Source: a virus
Taxonomy: Duplodnaviria > Heunggongvirae > Uroviricota > Caudoviricetes
Virus record (IMG/VR): IMGVR_UViG_2695420809_000014
Coordinates: 1 to 12,227 of that record
Reading direction: 5' to 3' (one strand)
Length of the DNA: 12,227 nucleotides
Part shown: one piece after another, positions 1-12,227 of the stretch
Numbering within the stretch: the stretch's first letter is position 1
Layout of the letters: each line of letters begins with the position of its first letter
The notes under the pieces: generated by a model
Seen by the model: only the letters and a program-made list of their open reading frames with translations
What the model was told of the DNA's origin: nothing
The model's database searches: none
Translations under genes and position numbers: made by a program

Positions 1-558
1 TATCGCGTCCTCAACAATGAATTTTGTGATGCGGCGCCTGGTGCCTCCAGGTGACGTTAACCAGTAAACCATTAACGCCGGATTGTTAGTTGATGTCTGT
101 TACGCAAGTAAAAGACCGCTTGTTTTAACTGTTCCGCGTGCGCTGAGCCGCATTCACCGCATCACAAAATTCACTTTAAAAGGGGCGGGTATCACGGGAA
201 AAACAAAACGAATACCCGCCAAAAGGTAATCAACATGGGTTGTTGTAGCGGAGTTGTCACTCAGGCGTATGGTCAACCTGACAACCCGGTGTCCTCAACG
301 GGGAAGGAATAACCCCGCCATACTTACCGCCGCGCCATTTCGCGGAGTGCCACAACCGGAAGCGCACGGTCGACGAAAATTTAACGACAGGCTATCTATG
401 AACCAGCAACCTCGCCGTGCGCTTTCGCGTTATGCTCTGACTTTTCAGAGAAATATCCTTTCAGTAAACTGTCAGTGCCGGATGTTCACCCGTGTCCGGC
501 GCACGCACTCCACTTCACCCATGGAGAACTCCTTAATTACCAACCCTCAGGAGGGTGA

Positions 559-792
559 ATGTTAAAATCAACTCTTATTGCTAAATGCCTTTATCAAAAT
601 CGCATGGTAAGCAGCATTTCAATAGGCGAGTCTGCAGTTAAAAGTATTTTCGAAGAGTACTTTCCCGGGCATGATTTTAATAAATGGAATACCAAATTAC
701 CGCCAGCAGTTTCAACGCGTATTCTGAAAGCAACTGAAAGAGCAAGTACAATTCGCGTTAACTATTTCATTAAAGATTTGTGGGATCTTTGA
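559..792 (+). CDS. hypothetical protein, 77 aa
   Basis: ATG at 559 preceded by AGGAGG (549-554); third codon positions biased to A/T as expected for real coding sequence in a lower-GC segment; 3' end overlaps the convergent gene 770-1177 by 23 bp. No family recognised. Confidence 0.45.
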   Translation: MLKSTLIAKCLYQNRMVSSISIGESAVKSIFEEYFPGHDFNKWNTKLPPAVSTRILKATERASTIRVNYFIKDLWDL

Positions 793-1177
793 TATCCACA
801 GAGCCTAAAGTATGTGCATATGGATGTGCTATTGTGCGCCCTCGCAGATTTGCATCATTTTCTAAATTCACTGAACGAAACAGGGCATCAACAAGGCTCT
901 GTACAATGCAAAGGCAATCGAAGACTGTCGCCGTTTCTGTTTTGATTGATGAAAGAACATGGCCATTCACGCAAACAGAAATTACCCGTTTATTAACATC
1001 GCTTTCCTGCTTTTGATTATCAGAACCATATAGCCCAGAAAAAGCATTGCGCACATTACGAACCATATTATCGATGGTTTCTTTTTTGGTGTATGCCGGG
1101 TCAATTTTCACCAGACTATCACCGAGAGTCGTTGCAGCAATTGTCTGGATTTCTTTTGGTAAATCTTTAAATTCCAT
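770..1177 (-). CDS. hypothetical protein, 135 aa, distal gene of the leftward early operon
   Basis: ATG at 1177 with GAGG 6 nt upstream; separated by 22 bp from the stop of the upstream minus-strand gene (1200); about 41% GC versus about 50% for the surrounding phage backbone. No family recognised. Confidence 0.6.
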   Translation of the reverse strand: MEFKDLPKEIQTIAATTLGDSLVKIDPAYTKKETIDNMVRNVRNAFSGLYGSDNQKQESDVNKRVISVCVNGHVLSSIKTETATVFDCLCIVQSLVDALFRSVNLENDANLRGRTIAHPYAHTLGSVDIKDPTNL

Positions 1178-1199
1178 TATTAGCCTCGTTGGTTAGCTA

Positions 1200-1418
1200 T
1201 TAACGTGGGTATGTAATCATTCTGGCAATGCTTAATGCCGCTGCTTTTTCCAGATTGGTGATATCCTGCTCCAGAGCGGACAGATTTTCAGCCTGCTTAG
1301 CCCTGGCTTCATTGGCCCATTTCAGGTCCTGCGCAGCCTTAATTTTCTGGTGCATCCACTCATAAAGTTCATCATCGGTATAGTCTGGCGCGATGATGAC
1401 GGGTTCTCGTTTCTGCAT
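1200..1418 (-). CDS. hypothetical early-left protein, 72 aa, predicted helical/coiled-coil
   Basis: ATG at 1418 with GAGGA 6 nt upstream; packed in the same minus-strand operon as its neighbours. Confidence 0.6.
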   Translation of the reverse strand: MQKREPVIIAPDYTDDELYEWMHQKIKAAQDLKWANEARAKQAENLSALEQDITNLEKAAALSIARMITYPR

Positions 1419-1447
1419 ACTGATTCCTCGCGGTGCTGCTTCGCTTA

Positions 1448-1576
1448 TCAGCCGTTAGATTTTGCCGGGCTGGAAAGCGCCTGTTTAAATTCGCTGAAGC
1501 TGAGGGCTTCTTCGCCTTCGGCAAGGCCTTCGAAGTATTCTTCGTAAGCCTTTTCCATGATTGTGTCGAAATCCAT
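1448..1576 (-). CDS. small acidic protein, 42 aa (net charge about -7)
   Basis: ATG at 1576 preceded by AGGTGG with a 5-nt spacer; start lies 1 nt after the TGA of the upstream gene (translational coupling); not in the supplied ORF track because it is under 60 aa. Confidence 0.45.
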   Translation of the reverse strand: MDFDTIMEKAYEEYFEGLAEGEEALSFSEFKQALSSPAKSNG

Positions 1577-1577
1577 A

Positions 1578-1733
1578 TCACCCACCTGAATCTCTTTCCA
1601 GCCAGCGACGCGCTCCAGATTCGGTTTTAAACGTTTTGCTTTTGGTATACGTCATTGCGGTGAACGTGCCGTCCTGGTTTGGAAACACGCCGTACACCAG
1701 AGATTCGTTGTTGCCAAGATCGATAGTATCCAT
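1578..1733 (-). CDS. hypothetical early-left protein, 51 aa (alternative start at 1814 gives 78 aa)
   Basis: In-frame ATG at 1733 with GAGG 5 nt upstream; first gene downstream of the palindromic operator pair at 1919-1957; size and position resemble the small ydaF/ydaG-type genes of Rac-like prophages (recollection, not verified). Confidence 0.5.
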   Translation of the reverse strand: MDTIDLGNNESLVYGVFPNQDGTFTAMTYTKSKTFKTESGARRWLERDSGG

Positions 1734-1918
1734 GCTGACCTCATTCCCCCTTAACGCCGGGGTAGCGGAACAAAAACCTGCTGCATAGTTATTAAAGTTG
1801 AACCCTGCCGTCATGTTCTTACGCCTCGGGCTGGCTACTTAACCCCTGACCACTGCCGGGTAACTCGAAGTATTTCCCTGCGTTCTGTGGGGCGGGGTGG
1901 GTTGGTATGAAAAGAAGG

Positions 1919-1957
1919 ATACCCATGGGTATTTAAAAAGTAAATACCCATGGGTAA
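1919..1957. promoter_or_regulatory. OL-like operator pair: two 14-bp palindromes ATACCCATGGGTAT (1919-1932) and ATACCCATGGGTAA (1944-1957)
   Basis: Perfect and near-perfect palindromes 25 bp centre to centre, just downstream of the repressor gene stop and upstream of the leftward small-gene operon; same WTACC-N4-GGTAW pattern as the three sites in the repressor/cro-like intergenic region. Confidence 0.5.
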
Positions 1958-1998
1958 CTTTTTGCGGTGTCTTAACTGGTGACTAGTTGTTTGGTGAG

Positions 1999-2418
1999 CT
2001 ATGATGCGTTTTGTGCTTTCTTTTTACGGATTTCTTCGTAGATCATATTGTAATACTGTTTTTTCTCTTCAAGAGTTTTTAATAAGTTATCCGCTTCACT
2101 TTCTGGCAGTTCGTCTAAGAGATCTAAAAAAATACGTTGTCGTGGCGTTAGAACCCTTGTTTCATAACTGGAGGCTGTGTTCGTTGATGATGAAACGATA
2201 CCATCCATCCATCCCCGGGGTAACCCAAAGGACTCTTCGATAATCTCCACCATATCATCAGCGATCCGTTTTTTTCCCTTTTTCCCCTCTGGGTACAACA
2301 TTCTTGATACATAAGAAGGCTCGCGCCCGATCTTTCTGGCCACGTTAACCGCTTTACCATCGCATTTCTCATCACGAATTTTGATGAGTTGCTGTCGTCT
2401 AAATTCATATTTGTCCAT
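1999..2418 (-). CDS. phage repressor, short HTH type (RacR-like, 139 aa)
   Basis: N-terminal HTH-like segment (KAVNVARKIGREPSYVSRML); divergent from a Cro-like gene; no SD before the ATG and a TATTAT -10 hexamer 6 nt upstream, consistent with a leaderless maintenance transcript as for lambda cI. Confidence 0.8.
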   Translation of the reverse strand: MDKYEFRRQQLIKIRDEKCDGKAVNVARKIGREPSYVSRMLYPEGKKGKKRIADDMVEIIEESFGLPRGWMDGIVSSSTNTASSYETRVLTPRQRIFLDLLDELPESEADNLLKTLEEKKQYYNMIYEEIRKKKAQNAS

Positions 2419-2437
2419 AGGTAAATAATAGATGCGA

Positions 2438-2493
2438 TTACCGCAAGGTAAACAACCTGTGGGTATTGACTTTTGTTTACCTGTGGGTATTCT
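2438..2493. promoter_or_regulatory. OR-like region: three WTACC-N4-GGTAW sites (2438-2451, 2453-2466, 2477-2490) overlapping divergent promoters
   Basis: TTACCGCAAGGTAA, CAACCTGTGGGTAT and TTACCTGTGGGTAT; rightward promoter candidate TTGACT (2466-2471), 16-bp spacer, TATTCT (2488-2493); leftward -10 TATTAT (complement of 2425-2430). Confidence 0.55.
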
Positions 2494-2518
2494 TTGCTGT
2501 GTTTACTAAGGAGTAGCT

Positions 2519-2800
2519 ATGGAAGAATTAAGAATATTTCTCAATTCTCTTTCGTCAGATGAACAGCGTATGTTTGCATGCGAGTGTGGTACCAGCATCG
2601 GTTATCTAAGAAAGGCATTGAGTAAAGGTCAAGTGTTAGGGGCATCGTTATGTGTCCTTATTGAGCGAGCCAGTAATGGTGAAGTTACACGTCAGCAACT
2701 AAGGCCTTTTGATTGGATGAATATTTGGCCCGAGCTGGAAGATACCAAAACGTTAACACAACCACTTTCTAGGAGCTTGATTCATGAAAATCAAGCATGA
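2519..2800 (+). CDS. Cro-like HTH regulator, YdaS family-like (93 aa)
   Basis: ATG 2519 with AAGGAG and 5-nt spacer; C-terminal IERASNGEVTRQQLRPFDW resembles the YdaS/Cro-type motif; divergent from the repressor. Confidence 0.75.
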   Translation: MEELRIFLNSLSSDEQRMFACECGTSIGYLRKALSKGQVLGASLCVLIERASNGEVTRQQLRPFDWMNIWPELEDTKTLTQPLSRSLIHENQA

Positions 2801-3209
2801 ACACATCCGCATGGCGATGAATGCCTGGGCTCATTCGGACGGTGAAAAAGTTCCGGCAGCTGAAATAACCCAGTCTTATTTTGAGTTGGGTATGACGTTT
2901 CCTGAATTGTACGACGACAGCCATCCGGAAGCCCTGTCTCGTAATACCCAGAAAATTTTCCGCTGGGTAGAAAAAAACACCCCTGATGCGGTTAAAAAAA
3001 TTCAGGCGTTGTTACCGGCGATCGAAAAAGCAATGCCGCCTCCGCTGGTGGCCCGAATGCGCAGCCACAGTTCGGAATATCACCGGGAGCTTGTCGAGCG
3101 ACGGGAGCGCCTGGTGAAAGATATCGATGAGTTTGTTGCGGCAGCGATCGTGTTGTTCGATCAGATGAATCGTGGTGGTCCGGCGGGAAATGCCGTGGTG
3201 GCGCATTGA
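2784..3209 (+). CDS. YdaT-like protein (141 aa), CII-type regulator/toxin family
   Basis: Begins MKIKHEHI, which I recall as the YdaT family N-terminus; AGGAG upstream; overlaps the preceding gene by 17 bp. Confidence 0.7.
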   Translation: MKIKHEHIRMAMNAWAHSDGEKVPAAEITQSYFELGMTFPELYDDSHPEALSRNTQKIFRWVEKNTPDAVKKIQALLPAIEKAMPPPLVARMRSHSSEYHRELVERRERLVKDIDEFVAAAIVLFDQMNRGGPAGNAVVAH

Positions 3210-3229
3210 TAACGTGTTCTGGGGGGGGG

Positions 3230-4195
3230 ATGAAGCTCCTTTTTGCTGAACGTCCGCTGGTTATAAACACGCAGCTGGCGATGAAAATTGGTCTGAACGA
3301 AGCCATCGTGTTGCAGCAGTTGCATTACTGGTTGAGAGATACCGGTTCCGGCATGGAATGTGATGGTGTTCGCTGGATTTATAACACAACAGAACAATGG
3401 CTGGAGCAGTTCCCGTTCTGGTCAGAGTCAACGTTAAAACGCGCATTTGCAAGTCTGAAAACGCTGGGGCTTTTACGTTGCGAAAAGCTCAATAAATCAA
3501 AGCGTGATATGACTAATTTTTACACGATTAATTACGAGAGCGAGCTTTTAGATGGTGGCAAAGTGAGCGAATCCATCAGATCAAAATGCGCTGCTCCATC
3601 AGGTCAAAATGACACGATGGAAGAGGCCAAAATGGCACGTTCCATTGGTTCAAAACGACTCAATGTCATCGGGTCAAAATGGCCTGATGATCTTACAGAG
3701 AATACAACAGAGATTACTACAGAGAATAAAAACACTTCTCGTCCGGAAGCTTCGCAACCGGACCCGCAGACGGTTGAACAGGATTTTTTAACCCGACACC
3801 CTGACGCGGTTGTGTTCAGTGCAAAAAAACGCCAGTGGGGCAACCAGGAGGATTTGGCGTGTGCGCAGTGGATCTGGGGGCGAATCGTGAGTCTTTACGA
3901 GCAGGCCGCCAGCGATGATGGCGAGATTTCGCGACCGAAAGAACCCAACTGGACCGCATGGGCCAACGACGTGCGCACAATGCGGATGCTGGATGGCAGA
4001 ACTCACAGACAAATTTGTGAAATGTTTGGTCGGGTGCAGCGGGATCCATTCTGGGTAAAAAATATCATGAGTCCGTCAAAGCTTCGCGAAAAATGGGATG
4101 AACTGGTTATCCGCCTGGGGCGTTCGTCTGTACAGCGTTGTGTGAATCATATTTCTGAGCCGGATACCGAAATTCCGCCGGGGTTCAGGGGGTAA
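3230..4195 (+). CDS. replication initiation protein, O-like replisome organiser (YdaU position)
   Basis: ATG 3230 directly abuts a G9 tract (3221-3229); N-terminal winged-helix-like region; five about 23-bp-spaced iterons inside the coding sequence; followed by a DnaC-like gene. An in-frame TTG at 3206 is a less likely alternative start. Confidence 0.8.
   Translation: MKLLFAERPLVINTQLAMKIGLNEAIVLQQLHYWLRDTGSGMECDGVRWIYNTTEQWLEQFPFWSESTLKRAFASLKTLGLLRCEKLNKSKRDMTNFYTINYESELLDGGKVSESIRSKCAAPSGQNDTMEEAKMARSIGSKRLNVIGSKWPDDLTENTTEITTENKNTSRPEASQPDPQTVEQDFLTRHPDAVVFSAKKRQWGNQEDLACAQWIWGRIVSLYEQAASDDGEISRPKEPNWTAWANDVRTMRMLDGRTHRQICEMFGRVQRDPFWVKNIMSPSKLREKWDELVIRLGRSSVQRCVNHISEPDTEIPPGFRG
3574..3730. 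repeat. origin-like iteron array (5 copies, core TCAAAATG, about 23-bp period) plus AT-rich tract with three tandem 12-mers beginning ACAGAGA
   Basis: Iteron cores near 3581, 3604, 3628, 3651, 3674; AT-rich 12-mers at 3695-3730; located inside the O-like gene as in ori-lambda. Confidence 0.6.
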
Positions 4196-4201
4196 CGGGC
4201 C

Positions 4202-4948
4202 ATGAAAAATATCGCGACAGGTGGTGTTCTTGAGCGTATCCGTAAGCTGACCCCGCAGCATGTAATCGCGCCGTACCGGACAGTGGACGAGTGGCGCGAG
4301 TGGCAACTGGCAGAAGGGCGAAAACGTAGCGAGGAGATCAACCGCCAGAATCGCCAGTTGCGGGTGGAAAAAATCCTGAATCGTTCGGGCATCCAGCCTC
4401 TGCACAGCAAATGCTCGTTTGCGAATTATCAGGTGCAGAACGACGGGCAAAAACACGCGCTGAGCCAGGCAAAATCCATCGCTGACGAACTGATGACCGG
4501 GTGCACGAATTTTGTGTTCAGCGGTAAGCCGGGTACCGGAAAGAACCACCTTGCAGCCGCCATTGGCAATCATCTTCTGGCGAAAGGTCGCAGCGTGATT
4601 GTGATAACGGTGGCTGATGTGATGCTGGCGTTACACAACAGCTACGACAACAAAAACTCAGGCGAAAAATTTTTACAGGGGTTGTGTGATGTTGACCTGC
4701 TTGTCCTGGATGAAATCGGAATGCAGCGGGATACGCGCAACGAGCAGGTCACACTGAACCAGATAGTCGACCGCAGAACGGCTTCGATGCGTAGTGTCGG
4801 AATGCTGACGAACCTGAACCACGTAGCGATGAGTACGCTTCTTGGCGAGCGTGTGATGGACCGCATGGTCATGAACGGTGGTCGCTGGGTGAATTTTAAC
4901 TGGGAGAGCTGGCGTTCGAATGTCAGACACCTGAGGGTTGTGAAGTAA
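4202..4948 (+). CDS. DnaC-like helicase loader (IstB-type AAA+ ATPase; YdaV position)
   Basis: Walker A GKPGTGKNHLAAA and Walker B DLLVLDEIG; start 7 nt after the stop of the O-like gene. Confidence 0.9.
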   Translation: MKNIATGGVLERIRKLTPQHVIAPYRTVDEWREWQLAEGRKRSEEINRQNRQLRVEKILNRSGIQPLHSKCSFANYQVQNDGQKHALSQAKSIADELMTGCTNFVFSGKPGTGKNHLAAAIGNHLLAKGRSVIVITVADVMLALHNSYDNKNSGEKFLQGLCDVDLLVLDEIGMQRDTRNEQVTLNQIVDRRTASMRSVGMLTNLNHVAMSTLLGERVMDRMVMNGGRWVNFNWESWRSNVRHLRVVK

Positions 4949-4969
4949 TTTTGTCCGGAGGAAATTTTA

Positions 4970-5731
4970 ATGGAAACCGTTTTTGACGCACTGAAAGCAA
5001 TGGGAAAAGCCACATCGGTAGAACTGGCCGCGCGACTTGATATCAGTCGTGAAGAGGTTCTCAACGAGCTGTGGGAACTCAAAAGAAATGGCGTCGTTGA
5101 TAAAACTGGTCACACCTGGTTTCTGGCTGGCGAAAGTGAATCCCTGGTAACCGAAGAGCGGCCAGTAAAATCTGAAGCACAGGATATGCTGACCGGGGAG
5201 GTCGAACAAAAAGTTACCGCAGACATGATGATTGAGTTTATCGGTCAGGATGGGGCTAAAACGTGTGAGGAACTGGCGGGTAAGTTCGGCATCAGTACTC
5301 GCAAGGTTGCTTCCACGCTGGCGGTGGTAACCGCAACGGGGCGGCTGGCACGCGTTAATCAGAGCGGTAAATTTCGTTACTGCATGCCGGGCGGTAATTT
5401 ACCAGCAGAGCCGAAAGCAGCATCGGTAACGGAAAATGATGGTAAGACCTTTCCTCAGCCAGCAGGTGTTGCGTTACCAGTCCGGGAAGCCGCAACACAG
5501 GAAGAAATTAAAACAGAAACTGTAGCGGGCATTGTGCAGTCGCTGCCATCGTTTACTGAAACGCGAGCGGATGACCTGATTTTACCATCGCTGCATATGG
5601 CAAACCTCGAACTGCGTCGGGCGAAAAGTCATGTCCAGAAGTGGGAACGAGTCTGCGCCGCGCTGCGGGAGCTGAACAAGCACCGGGATATTCTTCGGGA
5701 TATTACCGCGACCGGAGAGCTGCAGCGGTGA
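4970..5731 (+). CDS. hypothetical protein with two winged-helix-like repeats (253 aa; YdaW position)
   Basis: GGAGG with 8-nt spacer before ATG 4970; repeated motif ([15 protein letters not shown]... and [15 protein letters not shown]...) suggests tandem wH domains; C-terminal helical segment. Confidence 0.7.
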
Positions 5732-6045
5732 GTGGCTGGAAGAAGTGGTACGAGGCTGAAATCATGATACTCCGTCAGTGTGCGGGAACGATGACGGTCG
5801 AAAGCATTGGGAGGCTGACCGGTCGTACAGGTGATGCTGTCAGAACGAAAGCGCGGGAACTGGGTGTCAGTCTGATGTTACGGGGTGATTATCACCAGTC
5901 AACAAAATATCCACAGAGTGATATTGAACTGGCGCGACAGCTGCATCAGCGTGGCGTACCCAGGAGAGAAATCGCCAGAAAATTTGGAATGCCGTTGCGC
6001 ACAGTGAATAACTACGTTTATTTCGACAGGAGAGTTCAGGAGTGA
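5728..6045 (+). CDS. HTH DNA-binding protein (about 105 aa)
   Basis: GTG 5728 overlaps the upstream stop as GTGA; HTH-like segment [22 protein letters not shown]; alternative start ATG 5764 with GAGG upstream. Confidence 0.6.
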
Positions 6046-6392
6046 GGGTGAGAGTTTATATTGCCGGTCCAATGACCGGGTATAAAAATTTCAACCGTGA
6101 GGCGTTCCACAAGGCGGAAGAGGAACTGAAACGGGAAGGGCATACAGTCTTGAACCCGGCAGTACTTCCGGACGGGCTGACACAGCCGCACTACATGGAT
6201 ATCTGCATGGCAATGATACGTAGCGTGGATGCGATTTATATGCTGAAAGACTGGCAACGGTCAGCAGGCGCTAAAGCGGAACTGGCTCTGGCGGAGAAGC
6301 TAGGGCATGTGGTTGTTTTTCAGAGGGGGGCGATATGCCGATTCTCTGGTTTCAGGAGGTGTGGGAAAAAGAAATGTGGGAAGGTCTTGTGA
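6042..6392 (+). CDS. DUF4406-like (nucleoside 2-deoxyribosyltransferase-like) protein
   Basis: N-terminal VYIAGPMTG motif typical of that fold; GTG 6042 overlaps the upstream stop as GTGA; alternative GTG at 6048. Confidence 0.65.
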   Translation: MRVRVYIAGPMTGYKNFNREAFHKAEEELKREGHTVLNPAVLPDGLTQPHYMDICMAMIRSVDAIYMLKDWQRSAGAKAELALAEKLGHVVVFQRGAICRFSGFRRCGKKKCGKVL

Positions 6393-6460
6393 TTGTGGCC
6401 GAAACAGTTCTTTTATTATGGTCTGTGATTGCGTGTATTTTTATGATTTATTGTGAATGA
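6335..6460 (+). CDS. small hydrophobic peptide, 41 aa (or 28 aa from ATG 6374)
   Basis: ATG 6335 follows GAGGGGGG; translation MPILWFQEVWEKEMWEGLVIVAETVLLLWSVIACIFMIYCE; overlaps the 3' end of the DUF4406-like gene in another frame; not in the ORF track. Confidence 0.3.
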   Translation: MPILWFQEVWEKEMWEGLVIVAETVLLLWSVIACIFMIYCE

Positions 6461-6485
6461 TGTGAATCTCGCGGTGGCCACTGAA

Positions 6486-6530
6486 TTGCAACCATTACCC
6501 CCTGTGATGTAATTGTGGGGTAATGGTTGC
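6486..6530 (+). promoter_or_regulatory. 14-bp perfect inverted repeat (6488-6501 / 6517-6530) with an embedded promoter-like TTGCAA-16 bp-TGTAAT
   Basis: GCAACCATTACCCC ... GGGGTAATGGTTGC; -35 candidate 6486-6491 in the left arm, -10 candidate 6508-6513 in the loop; lies upstream of the gene starting at 6564. Confidence 0.35.
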
Positions 6531-6563
6531 GCAGGCATAGCGACAGGACTGGATGAGAAAAAT

Positions 6564-6986
6564 ATGACGAAATTTACCAGAGAGCAATTGATTGCTCATG
6601 CTAATGAAAGTGTGAAATCCATGAAATTTGCTGCGCGACAGACCGTGTTTAAGACTTCAAGAGTTGCCATTGAAATGGATCTTGCGCTTGCCCGTATTGC
6701 GCTTGCCTCACTTGAAGCAATGCCAGTTGCATGGTCCTGTGCTCACAATATGGTTTTGTTCAATGCTGAATCTGTTGCGGCATACGCAAAACACTCAGCC
6801 ATTGCGCCAAAACCCCTGTACGCTGCGCAACCGGCATCACTTTCACATGAGGAAGAGTTGGCAATGCTGGTTAAACAATTGGTAAGTCAGTTGAAAAAAG
6901 CGAAACCAGATTGCAAATTACCGGATATGGCGATGGGGTATCTGGAGCGGAATGGGCTGATAAGCGCGGAGGATGTTTTACGATGA
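6564..6986 (+). CDS. hypothetical protein, 140 aa
   Basis: First ATG of the frame (the track's 6513 start is a TTG inside the inverted repeat); weak SD; Ala/Leu-rich helical composition. Confidence 0.65.
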   Translation: MTKFTREQLIAHANESVKSMKFAARQTVFKTSRVAIEMDLALARIALASLEAMPVAWSCAHNMVLFNAESVAAYAKHSAIAPKPLYAAQPASLSHEEELAMLVKQLVSQLKKAKPDCKLPDMAMGYLERNGLISAEDVLR

Positions 6987-7066
6987 CCTGGCCGGAGGCA
7001 TTCACAACGACAGGAATTGCAATGGCGGCAGCACTTGTTGTGTATTCGATTTGCAGCTGGGGATAA
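6983..7066 (+). CDS. small hydrophobic peptide, 27 aa
   Basis: ATG overlaps the upstream TGA as ATGA; MTWPEAFTTTGIAMAAALVVYSICSWG has one predicted transmembrane segment; not in the ORF track. Confidence 0.35.
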   Translation: MTWPEAFTTTGIAMAAALVVYSICSWG

Positions 7067-7277
7067 AAACGGTTTGCGGGGAAATCTTAGTTAAGTAGAA
7101 TGACTGCGGGTGCTTGAGGCTATCTGTCTCAGGCATGAACACCAAAAGGCAGATAGAGAAAAGCCCCAGTTAACATTACGCGTCCTGCACGACGCTTAAC
7201 ATTAATCTGAGGCCCAATCTATGTCTCACAAATGTAGGTTAGCCTCTTACGTGCCGAAAGGCAAGGAGAAGCAGGCT

Positions 7278-7433
7278 ATGAAGCAGCAAAAGGCGATGTT
7301 AATCGCCCTGATCGTCATCTGTTTAACCGTCATAGTGACGGCACTGGTAACGAGGAAAGACCTCTGCGAGGTACGAATCCGAACCGGCCAGACGGAGGTC
7401 GCTGTCTTCACAGCTTACGAACCTGAGGAGTAA
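7278..7433 (+). CDS. hokD: Hok/Gef-family type I toxin (51 aa)
   Basis: Translation MKQQKAMLIALIVICLTVIVTALVTRKDLCEVRIRTGQTEVAVFTAYEPEE matches my recollection of E. coli HokD/RelF; AAGGAG upstream; an in-frame ATG at 7221 would give a 70-aa extended form. Paralogue assignment is uncertain because no relBE is upstream. Confidence 0.85.
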   Translation: MKQQKAMLIALIVICLTVIVTALVTRKDLCEVRIRTGQTEVAVFTAYEPEE

Positions 7434-7503
7434 GAGACCCGGCGGGGGAGAAATCCCTCGCCACCGCTGATGTGTCAGGCATCCTCAACGCACCCGCACT
7501 TAA

Positions 7504-7529
7504 CCCGCTTCGGCGGGTTTTGTTTTTTC
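7504..7529 (+). terminator. intrinsic terminator at the hok transcript 3' end
   Basis: CCCGC-TTCG-GCGGG stem-loop followed by TTTTGTTTTTT. Confidence 0.7.
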
Positions 7530-7600
7530 TGGTCGTTCTGGTTTACAATTCGCACGCCAGCCTGAACAACTGGCACCTGCTGCGCCAGCAGAGACAACCG

Positions 7601-7879
7601 ATGGCGCACGATACCAAATTACACAATTCTGATGATTCTGCCGTCTTTGCCAGCAGGCACGGGCGGCGTTCCCGCACTTTCAAATCTGACTGGTTCCAGC
7701 ATCCCCCATGCACTGAAGAACAGGCCGAGTGGCTAATTCAGTGCTACCGCAGACACGGATACGAGATTAAGAAAGCCCTCAGCCTCGATTATCGTCACTG
7801 GATAATCTCCGTCAGGCTTCCTTACTCCGAGCGCCCACCGCGTCCGTCCCGCACATTCCAGCAACGCATCTGGAGGTAA
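7601..7879 (+). CDS. hypothetical protein, 92 aa
   Basis: First ATG downstream of the hok terminator in an ORF that ends 1 nt before the DUF968 gene start; weak SD. Confidence 0.5.
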   Translation: MAHDTKLHNSDDSAVFASRHGRRSRTFKSDWFQHPPCTEEQAEWLIQCYRRHGYEIKKALSLDYRHWIISVRLPYSERPPRPSRTFQQRIWR

Positions 7880-7880
7880 C

Positions 7881-8930
7881 GTGCGGGTATTACTTCGACC
7901 TGTTCTGGTACCGGAACTCGGGCTGGTGATCGTTAAGCCGGGCCGTGAATCCATGCCGGTATTCCACAATACCCGGGTACTGGTGGAGCCGGAACCGAAA
8001 AGCATGCGTAATCTGCCGTCCGGGGTTGTTCCTGCCGTTCACCAGCCGCTAGTGGAAGACAAAACATTGCTGCCGTTTTTCAGTAACGCACGGGTGATTC
8101 GTGCTGCTGGTGGTGCTGGTGCATTGTCTGACTGGCTGTTGCGCCATATTAAATCCTGCCAGTGGCCACACGGCGATTATCATCACAGCGAAACCGTCAT
8201 TCACCGTTATGGTACCGGCGCAATGGTGTTGTGCTGGCACTGCGACAACCAGCTGCGTGACCAGACATCCGAATCACTCGAGCAACTTGCTCATCAAAAC
8301 CTGTCAGCATGGATGATTGACGTCATCGGTCACGCAATAAGCGGTACGCAGGAGCGTGAATTATCTCTGGCTGAATTATCCTGGTGGGCGGTCTGCAATC
8401 AGGTGGCGGACGCGCTTCCGGAGGCAGTATTACGTCGTTCTCTGGGGTTACGTGCGGAAAAAATCCGCCCCTTGTACCGCGAAAGCGACATCGTACCGGG
8501 AGAGCAGACCGCCATCAGCATACTGAAACAGCGCACAAAAAATCTTGCGCCGCTGCCTCACGCCCACCAGCAACAGAACCCACCACAGGAAAAGACGGTG
8601 GTCAGCATTGCCGTTGATCCTGAGCCTCCGGAATCTTTCATGAAACGACCTAAACGTCGCCGCTGGGTTAACGAGAAATACACACGCTGGGTGAAGACAC
8701 AGCCGTGTGCGTGTTGTGGTAAGCCAGCCGACGATCCCCATCACCTGATTGGTCATGGTCAGGGCGGAATGGGGACAAAATCTCACGATATTTTCACGCT
8801 ACCGCTGTGTCGGGAGCATCACAACGAGCTTCATGCGGATCCGCTGGCGTTCGAAGAAAAGCATGGTTCTCAGGTTGATTTAATTTTTCGTTTTCTTGAT
8901 CACGCCTTTGCAACTGGCGTGCTTGGGTAA
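7881..8930 (+). CDS. DUF968-like protein (YdfU-like, 349 aa), C-terminal Cys/His HNH-like motif
   Basis: GTG 7881 with GGAGG upstream; C-terminal CACCG...HHLIGHG...CREHHNELH cluster. Confidence 0.75.
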   Translation: MRVLLRPVLVPELGLVIVKPGRESMPVFHNTRVLVEPEPKSMRNLPSGVVPAVHQPLVEDKTLLPFFSNARVIRAAGGAGALSDWLLRHIKSCQWPHGDYHHSETVIHRYGTGAMVLCWHCDNQLRDQTSESLEQLAHQNLSAWMIDVIGHAISGTQERELSLAELSWWAVCNQVADALPEAVLRRSLGLRAEKIRPLYRESDIVPGEQTAISILKQRTKNLAPLPHAHQQQNPPQEKTVVSIAVDPEPPESFMKRPKRRRWVNEKYTRWVKTQPCACCGKPADDPHHLIGHGQGGMGTKSHDIFTLPLCREHHNELHADPLAFEEKHGSQVDLIFRFLDHAFATGVLG

Positions 8931-8942
8931 AAGAGGTGACTG

Positions 8943-9299
8943 ATGCTCATAGATTTGGTTTTACCTTACCCGCCGACGGTGAACACTTACTGGCGACGCC
9001 GTGGCAGCACATATTTTATCTCGGAGGAGGGAAAGCGTTATCGCCGGGCTGTGGCGTTTATTGTTCGCCAGCAGCGGCTGAAATTAAGCCTGTCCGGAAG
9101 GCTGGCGATAAAGGTGATTGCAGAGCCACCGGATAAGCGTCGTCGCGACCTGGACAACATTCTGAAAGCACCGCTGGATGCGCTGACGCATGCGGGAGTG
9201 TTAATGGACGATGAGCAGTTTGATGAAATCAATATCGTTCGTGGTCAGCCAGTATCTGGTGGACGTCTGGGGGTGAAGATTTACCCCATAATGCATTAA
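8943..9299 (+). CDS. rusA: RusA-family Holliday junction resolvase
   Basis: Conserved PDKRRRDLDN, DALTHAG and GGRL segments; size 118 aa; GAGGTG before ATG 8943. Confidence 0.85.
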   Translation: MLIDLVLPYPPTVNTYWRRRGSTYFISEEGKRYRRAVAFIVRQQRLKLSLSGRLAIKVIAEPPDKRRRDLDNILKAPLDALTHAGVLMDDEQFDEINIVRGQPVSGGRLGVKIYPIMH

Positions 9300-9313
9300 G
9301 AGCAGGTCAAAAA

Positions 9314-10135
9314 ATGAAACTGGAAGATTTACCGAAATACTACTCCCCAAAATCCCCTGGCCTGACCGATGCATCGGCCTCAACGTCAAAAGATGCGCTG
9401 AGTATCACTGATGTGATGGCCGCGCAGGGCATGACACAGAATCGGGCTGAGATGGGTTTTTCTGCGTTCCTGGGGAAAATGGGCATCAGTATGAATGACA
9501 GGGCGCGGGCAACAGAATTACTGGCAGATTATGCACTCAGTCGGTGCGATCGTGTGGCGGCGTTGAGAAAACTTCCGGCAGAAATAAAACCGGTAGTGAT
9601 GCGCATTATGGCTTCGTACGCTTTTGAGGATTATGCCCGCAGCGCAGCGAGTAAAAAGCAGTGCCCTTGTTGCTATGGGGAAAAATTTATTGAAAGCATA
9701 GTTTTTACAAACAAGGTCCAGTATCCGGATGGTAAGCCGCCGGTATGGGCAAAGTGTACGAAAGGTGTGTATCCGTCTTACTGGGAAGAATGGAAAAAAG
9801 TCAGGGAGGTGGTAAAAGTTGCCTGTCCGGAGTGTGGCGGAAAGGGTGAGGTTTCCACCGCCTGTAAGGATTGCCGTGGGCGTGGTGTCGCCATTCATCG
9901 TGAAGAGTCGGTAAAACGTGGTATGCCTGTTATCAGAGACTGCCAGCGTTGTGGTGGTCGTGGCTATGAAAGACTACCATCAACGGAGGCATTTAATGCT
10001 ATATGCGAGGTGACAAACCAGATAACACGCGCGTCATGGGAAAAAACAGTTAAGAAATTTTATGATGCGCTGGTGACCCGGTTTGATATTGAAGAAGCAT
10101 GGGCTGAGCGGCAGTTAAAAAAGGTAACTAGGTAA
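9314..10135 (+). CDS. late-gene antiterminator Q-like protein with four CxxCxGxG zinc-finger repeats
   Basis: Sits immediately upstream of a pR'-like promoter and tR'-like terminator; CPCCYGEKF, CPECGGKGE, CKDCRGRGV, CQRCGGRGY motifs; resembles Qin-type Q homologues from memory. Confidence 0.6.
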   Translation: MKLEDLPKYYSPKSPGLTDASASTSKDALSITDVMAAQGMTQNRAEMGFSAFLGKMGISMNDRARATELLADYALSRCDRVAALRKLPAEIKPVVMRIMASYAFEDYARSAASKKQCPCCYGEKFIESIVFTNKVQYPDGKPPVWAKCTKGVYPSYWEEWKKVREVVKVACPECGGKGEVSTACKDCRGRGVAIHREESVKRGMPVIRDCQRCGGRGYERLPSTEAFNAICEVTNQITRASWEKTVKKFYDALVTRFDIEEAWAERQLKKVTR

Positions 10136-10140
10136 CAAGG

Positions 10141-10168
10141 TTGATTTTTCCGGAATCTGTGGTAAATT
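10141..10168 (+). promoter_or_regulatory. pR'-like late promoter
   Basis: TTGATT (10141-10146), 16-bp spacer, TG-extended TAAATT (10163-10168), 5 nt after the Q-like stop. Confidence 0.5.
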
Positions 10169-10215
10169 CGTCATAACGATGGGCGTTTTATGCCTGACGT
10201 TAGAAGAGTTTCTAC

Positions 10216-10241
10216 AACCCGCCGCTGAGCGGGTTTTTTAT
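10216..10241 (+). terminator. tR'-like intrinsic terminator
   Basis: AACCCGC-CGCTGA-GCGGGTT stem-loop followed by TTTTTT, about 50 nt downstream of the promoter. Confidence 0.65.
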
Positions 10242-10278
10242 TGCGAAATTAATTACGGACCGTTATTATTCTGCTCCC

Positions 10279-10354
10279 GGCCCTTTAGCTCAGTGGTGAG
10301 AGCGAGCGACTCATAATCGCCAGGTCGCTGGTTCAAATCCAGCAAGGGCCACCA
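10279..10354 (+). tRNA. tRNA with CAT anticodon, closest to the lysidine-type tRNA-Ile2 (ileZ/ileX-like); tRNA-Met not excluded
   Basis: 7-bp acceptor stem GGCCCTT/AAGGGCC, D-arm GCTCAGTGGTGAGAGC, anticodon loop CTCATAA, T-arm GGTTCAAATCC, encoded CCA. Confidence 0.8.
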
Positions 10355-10455
10355 TCACAAACCGCCATTAGCTTATCAGGAAGAGCAGACGACACGATAA
10401 CAGGGTTGTTGGTGCGGGGGGCGGGTCCCCGATGGCGGTCCATTATCGGTATTCA

Positions 10456-10532
10456 GCGTTGTTAGCTCAGCCGGACAGAGCAATTGCCTTCTAAGCAATC
10501 GGTCACTGGTTCGAATCCAGTACAGCGCGCCA
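10456..10532 (+). tRNA. tRNA-Arg (TCT anticodon, argU/argN-like)
   Basis: Acceptor stem GCGTTGT/ACAGCGC, anticodon loop CTTCTAA, T-arm GGTTCGAATCC, encoded CCA; close to E. coli argU by eye. Confidence 0.85.
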
Positions 10533-10642
10533 TATTCATTCTTCCAGATTCCTTCCGGCAGAGCCTTATACTGAAATATACCTGGCTCAGGATATTGTTG
10601 AAAATATTATATGTTTGTCAAAAATAAAAGTTCTGTTAAGTA

Positions 10643-10996
10643 TTGATTGAATATTTGTTATACGGTCTAATGGTTTTTTCAGCATTAAATATTTATCATT
10701 CATATGGTGTGGGTAGAGTGAATATTGATGAGGCGTCGGGGTGTTTCATCCTTAGGCAGCGTATTGATATAGTCAATGCAGCACGAGCAAAGGCCTTCAG
10801 CCGTTTGACAGTTTTGTTCTGTACTCCTGATCGTCTTTCGGGAAGAGACGTTATTATTCTGAATAGTGATGCTATACAGAGGGTTTGCGATGAGTTCATG
10901 GTTGCTAATTCAGAATTATTTGCTCTTGTTCAGGAGTACAACAGAATAGCCAGGACCTGTGGTATGGATGAACTTCGGATTACTCATCTGGGGTAG
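10643..10996 (+). CDS. hypothetical protein in the AT-rich cargo segment (117 aa from TTG 10643; 108 aa from ATG 10670), hydrophobic N-terminus
   Basis: Longest ORF in the cargo; frequent ATA, AGA and AGG codons; no convincing SD at either start, so the call is tentative. Confidence 0.4.
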   Translation: MIEYLLYGLMVFSALNIYHSYGVGRVNIDEASGCFILRQRIDIVNAARAKAFSRLTVLFCTPDRLSGRDVIILNSDAIQRVCDEFMVANSELFALVQEYNRIARTCGMDELRITHLG

Positions 10997-11076
10997 ATAC
11001 ATATCTGGATTATCACCTGTTACGGTAAAAAGTGATTGCTTACTGTTTTTGTGAATGGCATTGCAGCAGCCGGATA

Positions 11077-11163
11077 ATGTCAGTGCTGGCTGACGGTGTG
11101 CTGGTGGCGGGTGTGGTGGTTGTTGCTTTCCCGTTGCTGAAAAAGAAAACGCCAGACTGTTAG
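11077..11163 (+). CDS. possible small hydrophobic peptide, 28 aa
   Basis: MSVLADGVLVAGVVVVAFPLLKKKTPDC: hydrophobic core then a KKK tail; weak SD (GGAT); not in the ORF track. Confidence 0.2.
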   Translation: MSVLADGVLVAGVVVVAFPLLKKKTPDC

Positions 11164-11389
11164 CCGGGTATCAGTTAGCGGGAGAAATTTTTAAATACTT
11201 CACAATTCAGGCGGTTGACTGTTGTCTGGTTTGCGGGGAGTTTGTTAAAAGAAACTGGCATGGTGAATCCCCCTGTGCGGAGGGGCAATCAGCGAGTAGG
11301 TATATGGGATAATCGCGGATTCAGGTGCTGGTACTGAATTCACCGGGAGGCACCCGGCACCATGCAATGGCACATAGCGCCACTCTCCA

Positions 11390-11416
11390 GCCCCTCTCCG
11401 GAGGGGCTGTTTATAT
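11390..11416 (+). terminator. candidate intrinsic terminator
   Basis: GCCCCTC-TCCG-GAGGGGC stem-loop followed by a T-rich tract (TGTTTATATTGATTTT). Confidence 0.4.
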
Positions 11417-11443
11417 TGATTTTGTCAGATGTGAGTAAACTCC

Positions 11444-11779
11444 TTATGGATTTTGTTGTTTTAGCCCATAAGGACATATTTGCAGAGTGCAACGGTTATT
11501 AAAGCATTCATTCAATACGTTATCTGTATTTGTAGGGCATTCCTGGCTGTTTTTGATTAAATTCCAGAATGTTTTATTGAATGGTACTATGTTGTAAATG
11601 GTTACAGGTAGCACTTTGTTATTGAGCATGATACCTGTGTGAGTCAGTGTAAATATACTTTCAGGAGGTAAGAAAGCATCCGATTGATACCAGATTATTA
11701 ATTTTATTTTACTCCATATGACTGAAAAAGATATTCCGCATGATGGCTGGATAACTGTATCAATCACAATCCACTTCAT
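11444..11779 (-). CDS. hypothetical protein, 111 aa, in the AT-rich cargo
   Basis: ATG 11779 with AAGGAAA 5 nt upstream; transcribed opposite to the late operon; Trp-rich N-terminal half and Cys-containing C-terminal half; no family recognised. Confidence 0.6.
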
Positions 11780-12038
11780 TTACTTTCCTTGTTTATGCCT
11801 TGCTGGTGATGTTCTGAAAAGTATAAATGATATTTTTGAATTAAACCATAGAGCAGAATTATTTTTCTGATGTTGTTTATTGTTTATTTAAATACAGGGT
11901 GGTTTATATCTCGTCTTGTAGTTTATCCATGCATATCTGCTTGATAATCAGGTTTTTATTTAAGGTATGGTTTTGTGTTTTTTCTGTATTACATGTCAGG
12001 TATTTTAAAGAATTATTTTTCAGATGGTGGAAAGAACC

Positions 12039-12227
12039 ATGGCATTTAAACACTATGATGTTGTCAGGGCGGCGTCGCCATCAGATCTTGCGGAAAAGCT
12101 GACACATAAACTGAAAGAGGGCTGGCAGCCGTTTGGTAGTCCGGTGGCCATAACCCCTTATACTCTGATGCAGGCGATTACAGCAGAAGGTGATGTGGTG
12201 GTCAGTGGTGCAACTGAGCCGGATTGG
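12039..12227 (+). CDS. 5' part of a conserved small phage protein (DUF1737-like by recollection), continues past the window end
   Basis: ATG 12039 preceded by GGTGGA; open frame MAFKHYDVVRAASPSDLAEKLTHKLKEGWQPFGSPVAI... to 12227 with no stop; GC content returns to backbone level. Confidence 0.5.
   Translation, partial: MAFKHYDVVRAASPSDLAEKLTHKLKEGWQPFGSPVAITPYTLMQAITAEGDVVVSGATEPDW

Follow-up and report, generated by a model that had tools for sequence, protein, structure and literature searches.

A conserved 92-amino-acid gene, most likely starting at GTG 10718, in the tRNA-preceded late cargo slot of a Qin-like Escherichia coli prophage

Introduction

The accessory genes known as 'morons', among them stxAB and tciA/tciB, occupy the interval between the antiterminator gene Q and the lysis cassette, in late-operon orientation and downstream of the late promoter pR′, the terminator tR′ and transfer RNAs (tRNAs) of the ileZ/argO type. 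The pR′/tR′ architecture of Shiga toxin (Stx) phages has been described (PMC7547250), and in the Stx2a phage Sp5 of strain Sakai a transcription start site (TSS) was mapped between tR′ and the tRNAs (Sy et al. 2020, PMC7547250). It is likewise established as a general principle that tRNAs carried by phages make up for codons seldom used by the host (Bailly-Bechet et al. 2007, as cited in PMC7946995). Here we analyse a gene that lies in the same slot, in the same orientation and downstream of the same kind of elements in the IMG/VR virus record IMGVR_UViG_2695420809_000014 (positions 1 to 12,227; this whole stretch of 12,227 nucleotides (nt) is called the window below), which is the early-to-late part of a lambdoid, Qin-like prophage of Escherichia coli and matches the pR′/tR′ architecture of the Stx phages. 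The object of the analysis was an open reading frame (ORF) of 117 amino acids (aa) that runs on the + strand from TTG 10643 to TAG 10996. A preliminary description had presented this ORF as a cargo gene whose rare codons are matched by the two tRNAs just upstream, and had suggested that its start might be mis-called or that it might not be translated.

Judged from purifying selection and a conserved reading frame, positions 10718 to 10996 are a genuine, conserved protein-coding gene. We consider it likely that the window carries a 92-aa accessory gene that begins at GTG 10718, lies in the cargo slot of a Qin-like prophage, is co-transcribed with the tRNAs and has a codon content that reflects base composition. 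It is an accessory gene of an already known late-region kind, and its protein falls into the same direct sequence family as PHROG 2873 and several clusters labelled 'hypothetical protein' at NCBI; the family is thus already in databases, with no characterised member.

Results

A conserved coding sequence at positions 10718 to 10996

The coding sequence (CDS) proposed here spans 10718 to 10996 on the + strand, starts with GTG and encodes 92 aa of a predicted alpha-helical hairpin protein. Two diverged E. coli clades, L003 (Shiga toxin-producing E. coli (STEC) RM10042) and L004 (enterotoxigenic E. coli (ETEC) 4079, listed as ETEC4079), were compared with the clade of the window. The proteins of the three clades are 56-63% identical and align without gaps from the GTG to a common stop codon. 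Nucleotide differences accumulate at third codon positions (24/23/43, 19/19/39 and 24/18/40 at positions 1/2/3 in comparisons among the three clades), and the ratio of non-synonymous to synonymous substitution rates (dN/dS) in the sense frame is 0.25-0.26. Variation inside the window clade was evaluated in 76 near-identical IMG/VR copies, and the CDS contained neither an indel nor a stop codon in any of them. Six of the 11 changes found in the CDS were synonymous (P = 0.022 against a neutral expectation of 23%). Variable sites numbered 10 in the 279 nt of the CDS (3.6 per 100) versus 19 in the 185 nt of the leader at 10533-10717 (10.3 per 100; Fisher P = 0.005). Taken together, these results identify the sequence as a protein-coding gene rather than a chance ORF. 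Purifying selection makes the suggestion that the ORF may not be translated unlikely, and the frameshifts or stop codons in homologues that would have marked the sequence as non-coding were not seen, since the homologues keep the frame.

Could the selected element be something other than this frame? An antisense ORF (67 aa, 10696-10899) or a small RNA (sRNA) as the functional element is hardly credible. It is true that the opposite-strand frame sharing the wobble positions also has a low dN/dS (0.23-0.39) and that L004 contains an open antisense ORF of 95 aa, but such a low ratio is the expected shadow of the sense frame, and the antisense frame is interrupted by 2 stops in both the window and L003, which rules out an antisense gene in these two of the three clades. 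As for an RNA, nothing within 10533-11031 matched an Rfam family when the window was scanned at E ≤ 1. A terminator scan pointed to an internal terminator-like hairpin at 10832-10850; this we regard as a coincidence, because homologues do not conserve it and it lies inside the most conserved coding segment.

The start codon and the leader

Homologue alignment bore out the earlier suspicion of a mis-called start, placing it at a third candidate, GTG 10718. The conserved coding unit is most likely the 92-aa frame that begins there, and the 117-aa (TTG 10643) and 108-aa (ATG 10670) readings would be open-frame extensions into a non-conserved leader. The ORFs of L003 and L004 are exactly 92 aa long and begin at the GTG homologous to that of the window. 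Both clades are deposited as 92-aa proteins in GenBank/RefSeq, L004 as WP_001017777.1 of the Prokaryotic Genome Annotation Pipeline (PGAP), which is 63% identical to the window protein, has equal length and shares the start and stop positions. Duplex energies with the 3′ end of 16S rRNA point in the same direction. A weak Shine-Dalgarno (SD) remnant, GGGT, is found on the + strand at 10711-10714, 3 nt before GTG 10718, and its pairing energy of -4.5 kcal/mol, though weak, is the best among the three candidate starts. At TTG 10643 and ATG 10670 the values are -0.9 and -2.4 kcal/mol, so that neither SD is usable, in agreement with the preliminary description, which had found no convincing SD at these two positions. 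Homologues have AGGAG or GGGAG at the SD position, with -6.9 and -7.4 kcal/mol.

The leader upstream of the GTG (10533-10717, + strand) is AT-rich and includes the 25 codons of the 'N-terminal extension' (10643-10717), which is non-conserved, about three times more variable than the CDS and subject to frame-breaking indels. These features bear on the alternative that the window clade makes a longer protein, starting at ATG 10670 (108 aa, as in the PHROG 2873 profile and many GenBank records) or at TTG 10643 (117 aa). In its favour, the frame is open from 10643, residues 10-117 match the full 108 positions of the PHROG 2873 profile, hundreds of database entries have 108-118 aa, and some L003-like variants (P0014/P0015) also have an open extension. 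Nevertheless, besides the lack of an SD at either start, the extension has 4 non-synonymous substitutions out of 5 and, in one allele (L020), a 1-nt deletion at 10678. In L003 the leader shows 2-nt and 3-nt indels relative to the window, and a stop codon interrupts the frame six codons before the GTG; the leader of L004 is unrelated to the window upstream of the GTG. Moreover, distant relatives all measure 91-95 aa. The 108-, 117- and 118-aa versions exist in databases because gene callers take the longest ORF, and the conserved unit is 92 aa. For these reasons we judge a longer product unlikely.

The weak SD also raises the question of whether the gene is a silent or decaying relic in the window clade, conserved only through the youth of the module and left untranslated from a degraded SD and a GTG. 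The SD is poorer than the AGGAG of relatives, the gene goes uncalled in PGAP, disrupted alleles occur, though rarely (P0009, P0013), and identity across the module is at least 95% in almost every genome, which leaves little time for decay. Against this, CDS diversity is one third of that of the leader, changes are biased to synonymous ones, and all 76 loci are free of indels and stops. Intact alleles form clusters of 146-370 members versus 1-2 for the disrupted ones, and the L003 clade, which PGAP also leaves uncalled, keeps the 92-aa frame at 67% nucleotide identity. We therefore regard a relic as very unlikely and a translated 92-aa gene as the better account.

The rare codons and the upstream tRNAs

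The preliminary description had centred on a correspondence between the codons of the ORF and two upstream tRNAs, and its factual basis held up. The codon tabulation of the 117-aa ORF returned the three AGA, three AGG and three ATA codons that had been reported; the Arg codons, given as about 10, number 11 (3 CGT, 1 CGA, 1 CGG, 3 AGA and 3 AGG), and the Ile codons are also 11 (7 ATT, 1 ATC and 3 ATA). The third AGA is codon 25 of the long form (10715) and falls in the leader, upstream of the likely true start; the 92-codon CDS contains 2 AGA, 3 AGG and 3 ATA. ARAGORN confirmed both anticodons. The tRNA with anticodon CAT (10279-10354, + strand; Rfam tRNA, 72.5 bits) is of the ileZ type of tRNA-Ile2 and is annotated as tRNA-Ile by PGAP and in Sakai. 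It reads AUA after lysidine modification, and its acceptor stem shows C4-G69 and C5-G68, which we take to be the TilS determinants of tRNA-Ile2. The tRNA-Arg with anticodon TCT (10456-10532, + strand; Rfam, 68 bits) is of the argO type, corresponds to argO4 of Sakai and decodes AGA and, by wobble, AGG.

One explanation of this match is co-adaptation, in which the AGA, AGG and AUA codons have been kept because the co-transcribed tRNAs supply them, and translation is gated by the tRNA module. The codons are those that the two anticodons read, the distance from tRNA-Arg(TCT) to the ORF is 186 nt in about 73 of 78 close loci, and three rare codons fall within codons 76-79. In addition, 8 of the 92 codons of the CDS (8.7%) are AGA, AGG or ATA, whereas the remaining 21 window genes together have 77 in 2,958 (2.6%; Fisher P = 0.0036 without correction). 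The ORF thus exceeds the prophage backbone in rare-codon frequency, the comparison by which the earlier proposal was to be checked, but it does not stand out from other genes of the prophage. Comparable shares are found in the gene at 5764-6045 (8.6%), the DUF4406 gene (6.0%), IraM (6.3%) and YlcI of the sister prophage (9.5%). Conditioned on the Arg and Ile content of the ORF and on backbone codon usage, the probability of finding eight or more such codons is 0.025. With a GC covariate the ORF takes third place among 46 genes (P = 0.015), a value that fails correction for 46 tests. The first two places go to early-operon genes situated 4-5 kb before the tRNAs: the hypothetical gene (5764-6045; 8 of 93 codons, P = 0.0015) and the DUF4406 gene (6042-6392; 7 of 116 codons), both with a GC-corrected excess above that of the ORF.

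Position relative to the tRNAs did not predict codon content either. In the sister prophage L001, rare codons amount to 2.2% downstream of the tRNAs versus 3.3% in early genes. Rare-codon positions differ between homologues, and other members of the family have 1.1-5.4% rare codons: L004 and L013 reach 5.4% with no tRNA nearby, relatives that follow a tRNA-Thr (L007, L008) have 1.1-3.2%, and the L003 gene is separated from its upstream tRNAs by 2.2 kb, with TCG as the anticodon of the Arg tRNA. Conversely, the tRNA pair is more widespread than the ORF family (7,597 places in 3,061 E. coli genomes versus 1,486 places). Mostly it stands ahead of cargo other than the ORF, as with tciA in Sakai Sp10, and the rare codons of these cargos range from 0 to 5.8%, tracking GC content. 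The tight linkage between ORF and tRNAs is confined to one near-clonal module and hence reflects descent. The search for an ORF-specific relationship therefore found neither an enrichment beyond composition, nor an association in independent lineages, nor conserved rare-codon positions, and the codon-tRNA pairing proposed as specific to this ORF did not survive the comparison. The share of AGA, AGG and ATA in the prophage, about 2.6-2.7%, is well above that of typical E. coli core genes, and the principle of codon compensation applies to the prophage as a whole, not to the ORF in particular. Co-adaptation of this ORF with its tRNAs is accordingly distinctly unlikely, and a codon content set by composition is the reading we retain.

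A further case of apparent matching was noticed in the window. The homologue of the anti-adaptor gene iraM (11444-11779, - strand) has 34% GC; 7 of its 14 Ile codons are ATA, and it contains no AGA or AGG. Its 'match' to tRNA-Ile2 is stronger than that of the ORF, though it lies on the opposite strand.

The predicted product and its relatives

The window protein matches PHROG 2873 with E = 3.8e-70, residues 10-117 aligning to positions 1-108 of the 108-position profile, and is a member of that family. The family is small, with 19 representatives among 1.84 billion clustered proteins, and includes relatives of 91-95 aa, 33-43% identical, from Citrobacter, Salmonella and E. coli plasmids. An AlphaFold2 model (predicted local distance difference test score 84.7, predicted TM score 0.71) consists of two helices, residues 3-35 and 50-81, linked by a short beta-hairpin that is the most conserved segment (FSRLTVxFxTPDRxSG). 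The product sequence has neither a signal peptide nor a hydrophobic span. The model tentatively suggests a soluble, antiparallel two-helix coiled-coil hairpin with an invariant loop at its tip, and, with similarly low confidence, we think that such a protein would most plausibly bind another protein and act as a small modulator rather than an enzyme.

Searches of Pfam (even at E ≤ 10), NCBIfam, PADLOC and PDB sequences, the last with single query and profile, gave no meaningful match. A RHIM match (E = 0.09) was regarded as noise. A resemblance to the central domain of H-NS, spotted by eye (xQxYxxhxxxxxGhD), was rejected: profile comparison with an H-NS/H-NST-like oligomerisation domain received an hhalign probability of 0.1%, and no H-NS chain was among the matches of the PDB profile search. 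Among the PADLOC defence profiles the window protein had no match, and one distant family member matched HEC-06 with E = 0.009. A literature search on ileZ/argN/argO and on the family identifiers found nothing specific.

The surroundings of the relatives hint at a regulatory theme. Citrobacter-type prophage relatives occupy the same slot, between Q and TerB-like, DUF3927 and holin genes. The L003 member directly follows an AraC-like helix-turn-helix gene; among other distant relatives one lies beside a GerE-type regulator and one after a type IV pilus gene set. Plasmid-borne members show that the family extends beyond prophages. One of them (P0092/P0029, 91 aa, 34% identical; gene 8001-8276 of L099-L102, present also in L097) is found on Rep3/SopB-type plasmids, where it lies upstream of a PapB-like regulator, 1.2 kb away and in divergent orientation; the regulator heads a fimbrial operon and is followed by a K88-like fimbrial subunit, an usher, a chaperone and DsbA. 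There is perhaps a slim chance that the hairpin proteins are small mobile regulators, or anti-activators, of a family that has so far escaped recognition, is confined to Enterobacteriaceae and is carried on AT-rich, horizontally acquired loci of the kinds just named, with a translation that in the window lineage may additionally be tuned by the co-transcribed tRNAs.

A scan of genome contigs recovered 2 loci only. One of them, L013 (JAEWMQ010000075.1), is a 2.7-kb contig labelled 'MAG: Bacillota bacterium' (MAG, metagenome-assembled genome), whose protein is identical to the L004 type and is preceded by the same 30 nt before the start; in all likelihood this contig is enterobacterial and was mis-binned.

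Control elements and the tRNA module

The Q-type late antiterminator gene of the window (9314-10135, + strand) encodes 273 aa (Pfam Antiterm PF03589, E = 6e-55; 'antitermination protein' in PGAP). A candidate pR′ can be read from the sequence at 10141-10168 (+ strand), with TTGATT at 10141-10146, a spacer of 16 nt and the extended -10 element TGgTAAATT. It scores 8/12, under the cut-off of the promoter scanner, and the assignment draws on its position between Q and a terminator. This strong, tR′-like intrinsic terminator, found by terminator scan at 10216-10243 (+ strand), has a 7-bp GC-rich stem and a T-run. As the predicted pR′ and tR′ are only ~70 nt apart, a short constitutive leader RNA would be expected, analogous in origin to the 6S RNA of lambda or the StxS sRNA of Stx phages; for the region 10141-10243 Rfam gives only a sub-threshold Trp_leader-like match (26.5 bits).

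A promoter-like site for the tRNAs was detected by promoter scan at 10241-10269 (+ strand; TTGCGA, 17 nt spacer, TATTAT). It ends 9 nt before tRNA-Ile and is kept in Sakai Sp10, in the Stx-type phage phi296 and in the STEC prophage of RM10042. Because this site is conserved and its position matches the TSS mapped in Sp5, transcription of the tRNAs in lysogens, and possibly of the ORF, may be independent of Q. No terminator was found by terminator scan between tRNA-Arg and the gene, which suggests co-transcription with the tRNAs.

The arrangement of an Ile2-type tRNA (CAT) and a tRNA-Arg (TCT) after tR′ identifies the pair as a prophage tRNA module of the ileZ/argO type, and over its 254 nt it is 97% identical to ileZ4-argO4 of Sakai Sp10. 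Matches to other prophages break at the edges of the module, on the left at 10239/10240, just after tR′, and on the right at 10354, 10532 or 10547, mostly tRNA 3′ ends, with differing Q genes upstream and differing cargo downstream. The conserved tRNA block thus appears to act as a recombination anchor for cargo swapping.

The prophage setting

The window opens with ydfA/B/C-like genes, genes of the repressor region and O- and P-like replication genes, which are followed by hokD with its sok RNA, a DUF968 gene and RusA (8943-9299). Downstream of Q come the two tRNAs, the ORF, a DUF3927/TciB-like gene, an STnc100 sRNA and iraM on the minus strand. The DUF3927/TciB-like gene (11032-11163, + strand; Pfam PF13064, E = 1.7e-27; PHROG 1470; annotated by PGAP) is a small membrane-type accessory gene, the next after the ORF and part of the same cargo block.

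Several RNA elements were noted along the window. The hokD toxin gene (7278-7433) is accompanied by the sok antisense RNA (7108-7283; Rfam, 120 bits) and followed by a sub-threshold isrK-like match (7442-7523; Rfam, 27 bits). A full-length STnc100 sRNA (11229-11418, + strand; 132 bits, E = 1e-29) lies between the DUF3927 gene and iraM and ends at a strong terminator (11388-11409). The pseudogene that PGAP annotates opposite this sRNA as a 'partial hypothetical protein' is probably a spurious call. A second copy of STnc100, partial and weak (29.9 bits), is found near the left end of the window (23-171, - strand).

The sister prophage L001, from strain AUSMDU00014361, is identical to the window over 10100-11400 and 99.6% identical over window positions 7089-12227. 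Its early region (3866-6619) carries a SMODS nucleotidyltransferase gene and a SLATT-domain gene that IS1203 has interrupted. They are a defence pair resembling cyclic oligonucleotide-based antiphage signalling systems (CBASS), within the prophage and in a region outside the window.

Distribution and annotation

A near-identical copy of the gene (≥95%) is present in 1,183 of 5,426 complete E. coli genomes, about 22%. By comparison, a single one of 50,697 deposited phage genomes (mEp460_ev081) contains it, yet it is widespread in E. coli chromosomes. RefSeq has no annotation for the window clade and the L003 clade, that is, for two of the three E. coli clades. A conserved small gene is consequently missing from RefSeq, an omission that can be corrected, and the gene is a candidate for small-protein studies; other pipelines that do call the gene probably give it a wrong start codon.

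Discussion

The reading that we favour, a 92-aa gene in a late cargo slot, would work as follows. The gene lies between Q/pR′/tR′ and the lysis genes, in the variable slot that stx occupies in Stx phages. During lysogeny its mRNA would be made as a 3′ extension of the tRNA transcript, from the promoter upstream of tRNA-Ile, and tRNA processing would release the message. After induction, Q-antiterminated transcripts from pR′ would carry the gene at a much higher level. With a weak SD in front of GTG 10718, where translation would begin, the gene is probably expressed at a modest level. The AGA, AGG and ATA codons would reflect the AT-rich, horizontally acquired composition that is typical of such cargo, and the tRNAs would aid translation of the gene as of any phage or host gene containing AGR and AUA codons, not as one half of a co-adapted pair.

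Some observations weigh against this account. Loci within the window clade are near-clonal, and the polymorphism statistics rest on few events. The window clade combines its weak SD (-4.5 kcal/mol) with a GTG start, and PGAP annotates nothing at the locus in 36 of 36 genomes among the matches listed. Finally, rare codons are most frequent in the tRNA-adjacent window clade (8.7% vs 1.1-5.4% in the rest of the family), as co-adaptation predicts, yet this is effectively a single observation.

How does the gene compare with known systems? By location it behaves as a moron: it lies between Q/pR′/tR′ and the lysis cassette in late-operon orientation, past the two tRNAs, and the preliminary description had rightly called the ORF cargo. 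Its presence/absence pattern and atypical composition also agree with this class, since the ORF has 44% GC versus 48% for the window, and in related prophages the match to the window breaks off at 10354 or 10532, where different cargo follows. The classical definition of a moron expects a promoter and a terminator of its own; the promoter and terminator scans found no private promoter (with an A at -11) or flanking terminator, although read-through from the tRNA promoter is possible. The best sigma-70 candidate in the leader (TTGATT at 10643, 17 nt spacer, TCTAAT) was not accepted, because its -10 element lacks the essential A at position 2.

The gene product is unrelated to Stx, TerB/TciA or DUF3927. 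Prefoldin subunits and the TraM anti-activator resemble it in shape only, with 3-11% identity and Foldseek E values of 0.3 or worse. This likeness is generic, because thousands of coiled coils score similarly, and, with no Pfam match at E ≤ 10, the protein does not belong to a TraM- or prefoldin-like family.

The closest counterpart of the upstream module is the ileZ-argN-argO cluster of Stx and other enterohaemorrhagic E. coli (EHEC) lambdoid prophages, which in Stx2 phages is 84-92% identical to the tRNA pair of the window. The window differs from it in having two tRNAs and no argN (TCG), and in carrying as cargo a small ORF instead of stx or tciA. The tRNA module emerges as a generic, portable unit whose ends serve as recombination junctions for cargo exchange. 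As the gene shares its tRNA-preceded slot with the Shiga toxin genes, its expression logic, a tRNA promoter combined with Q-dependent read-through, would parallel that of stx.

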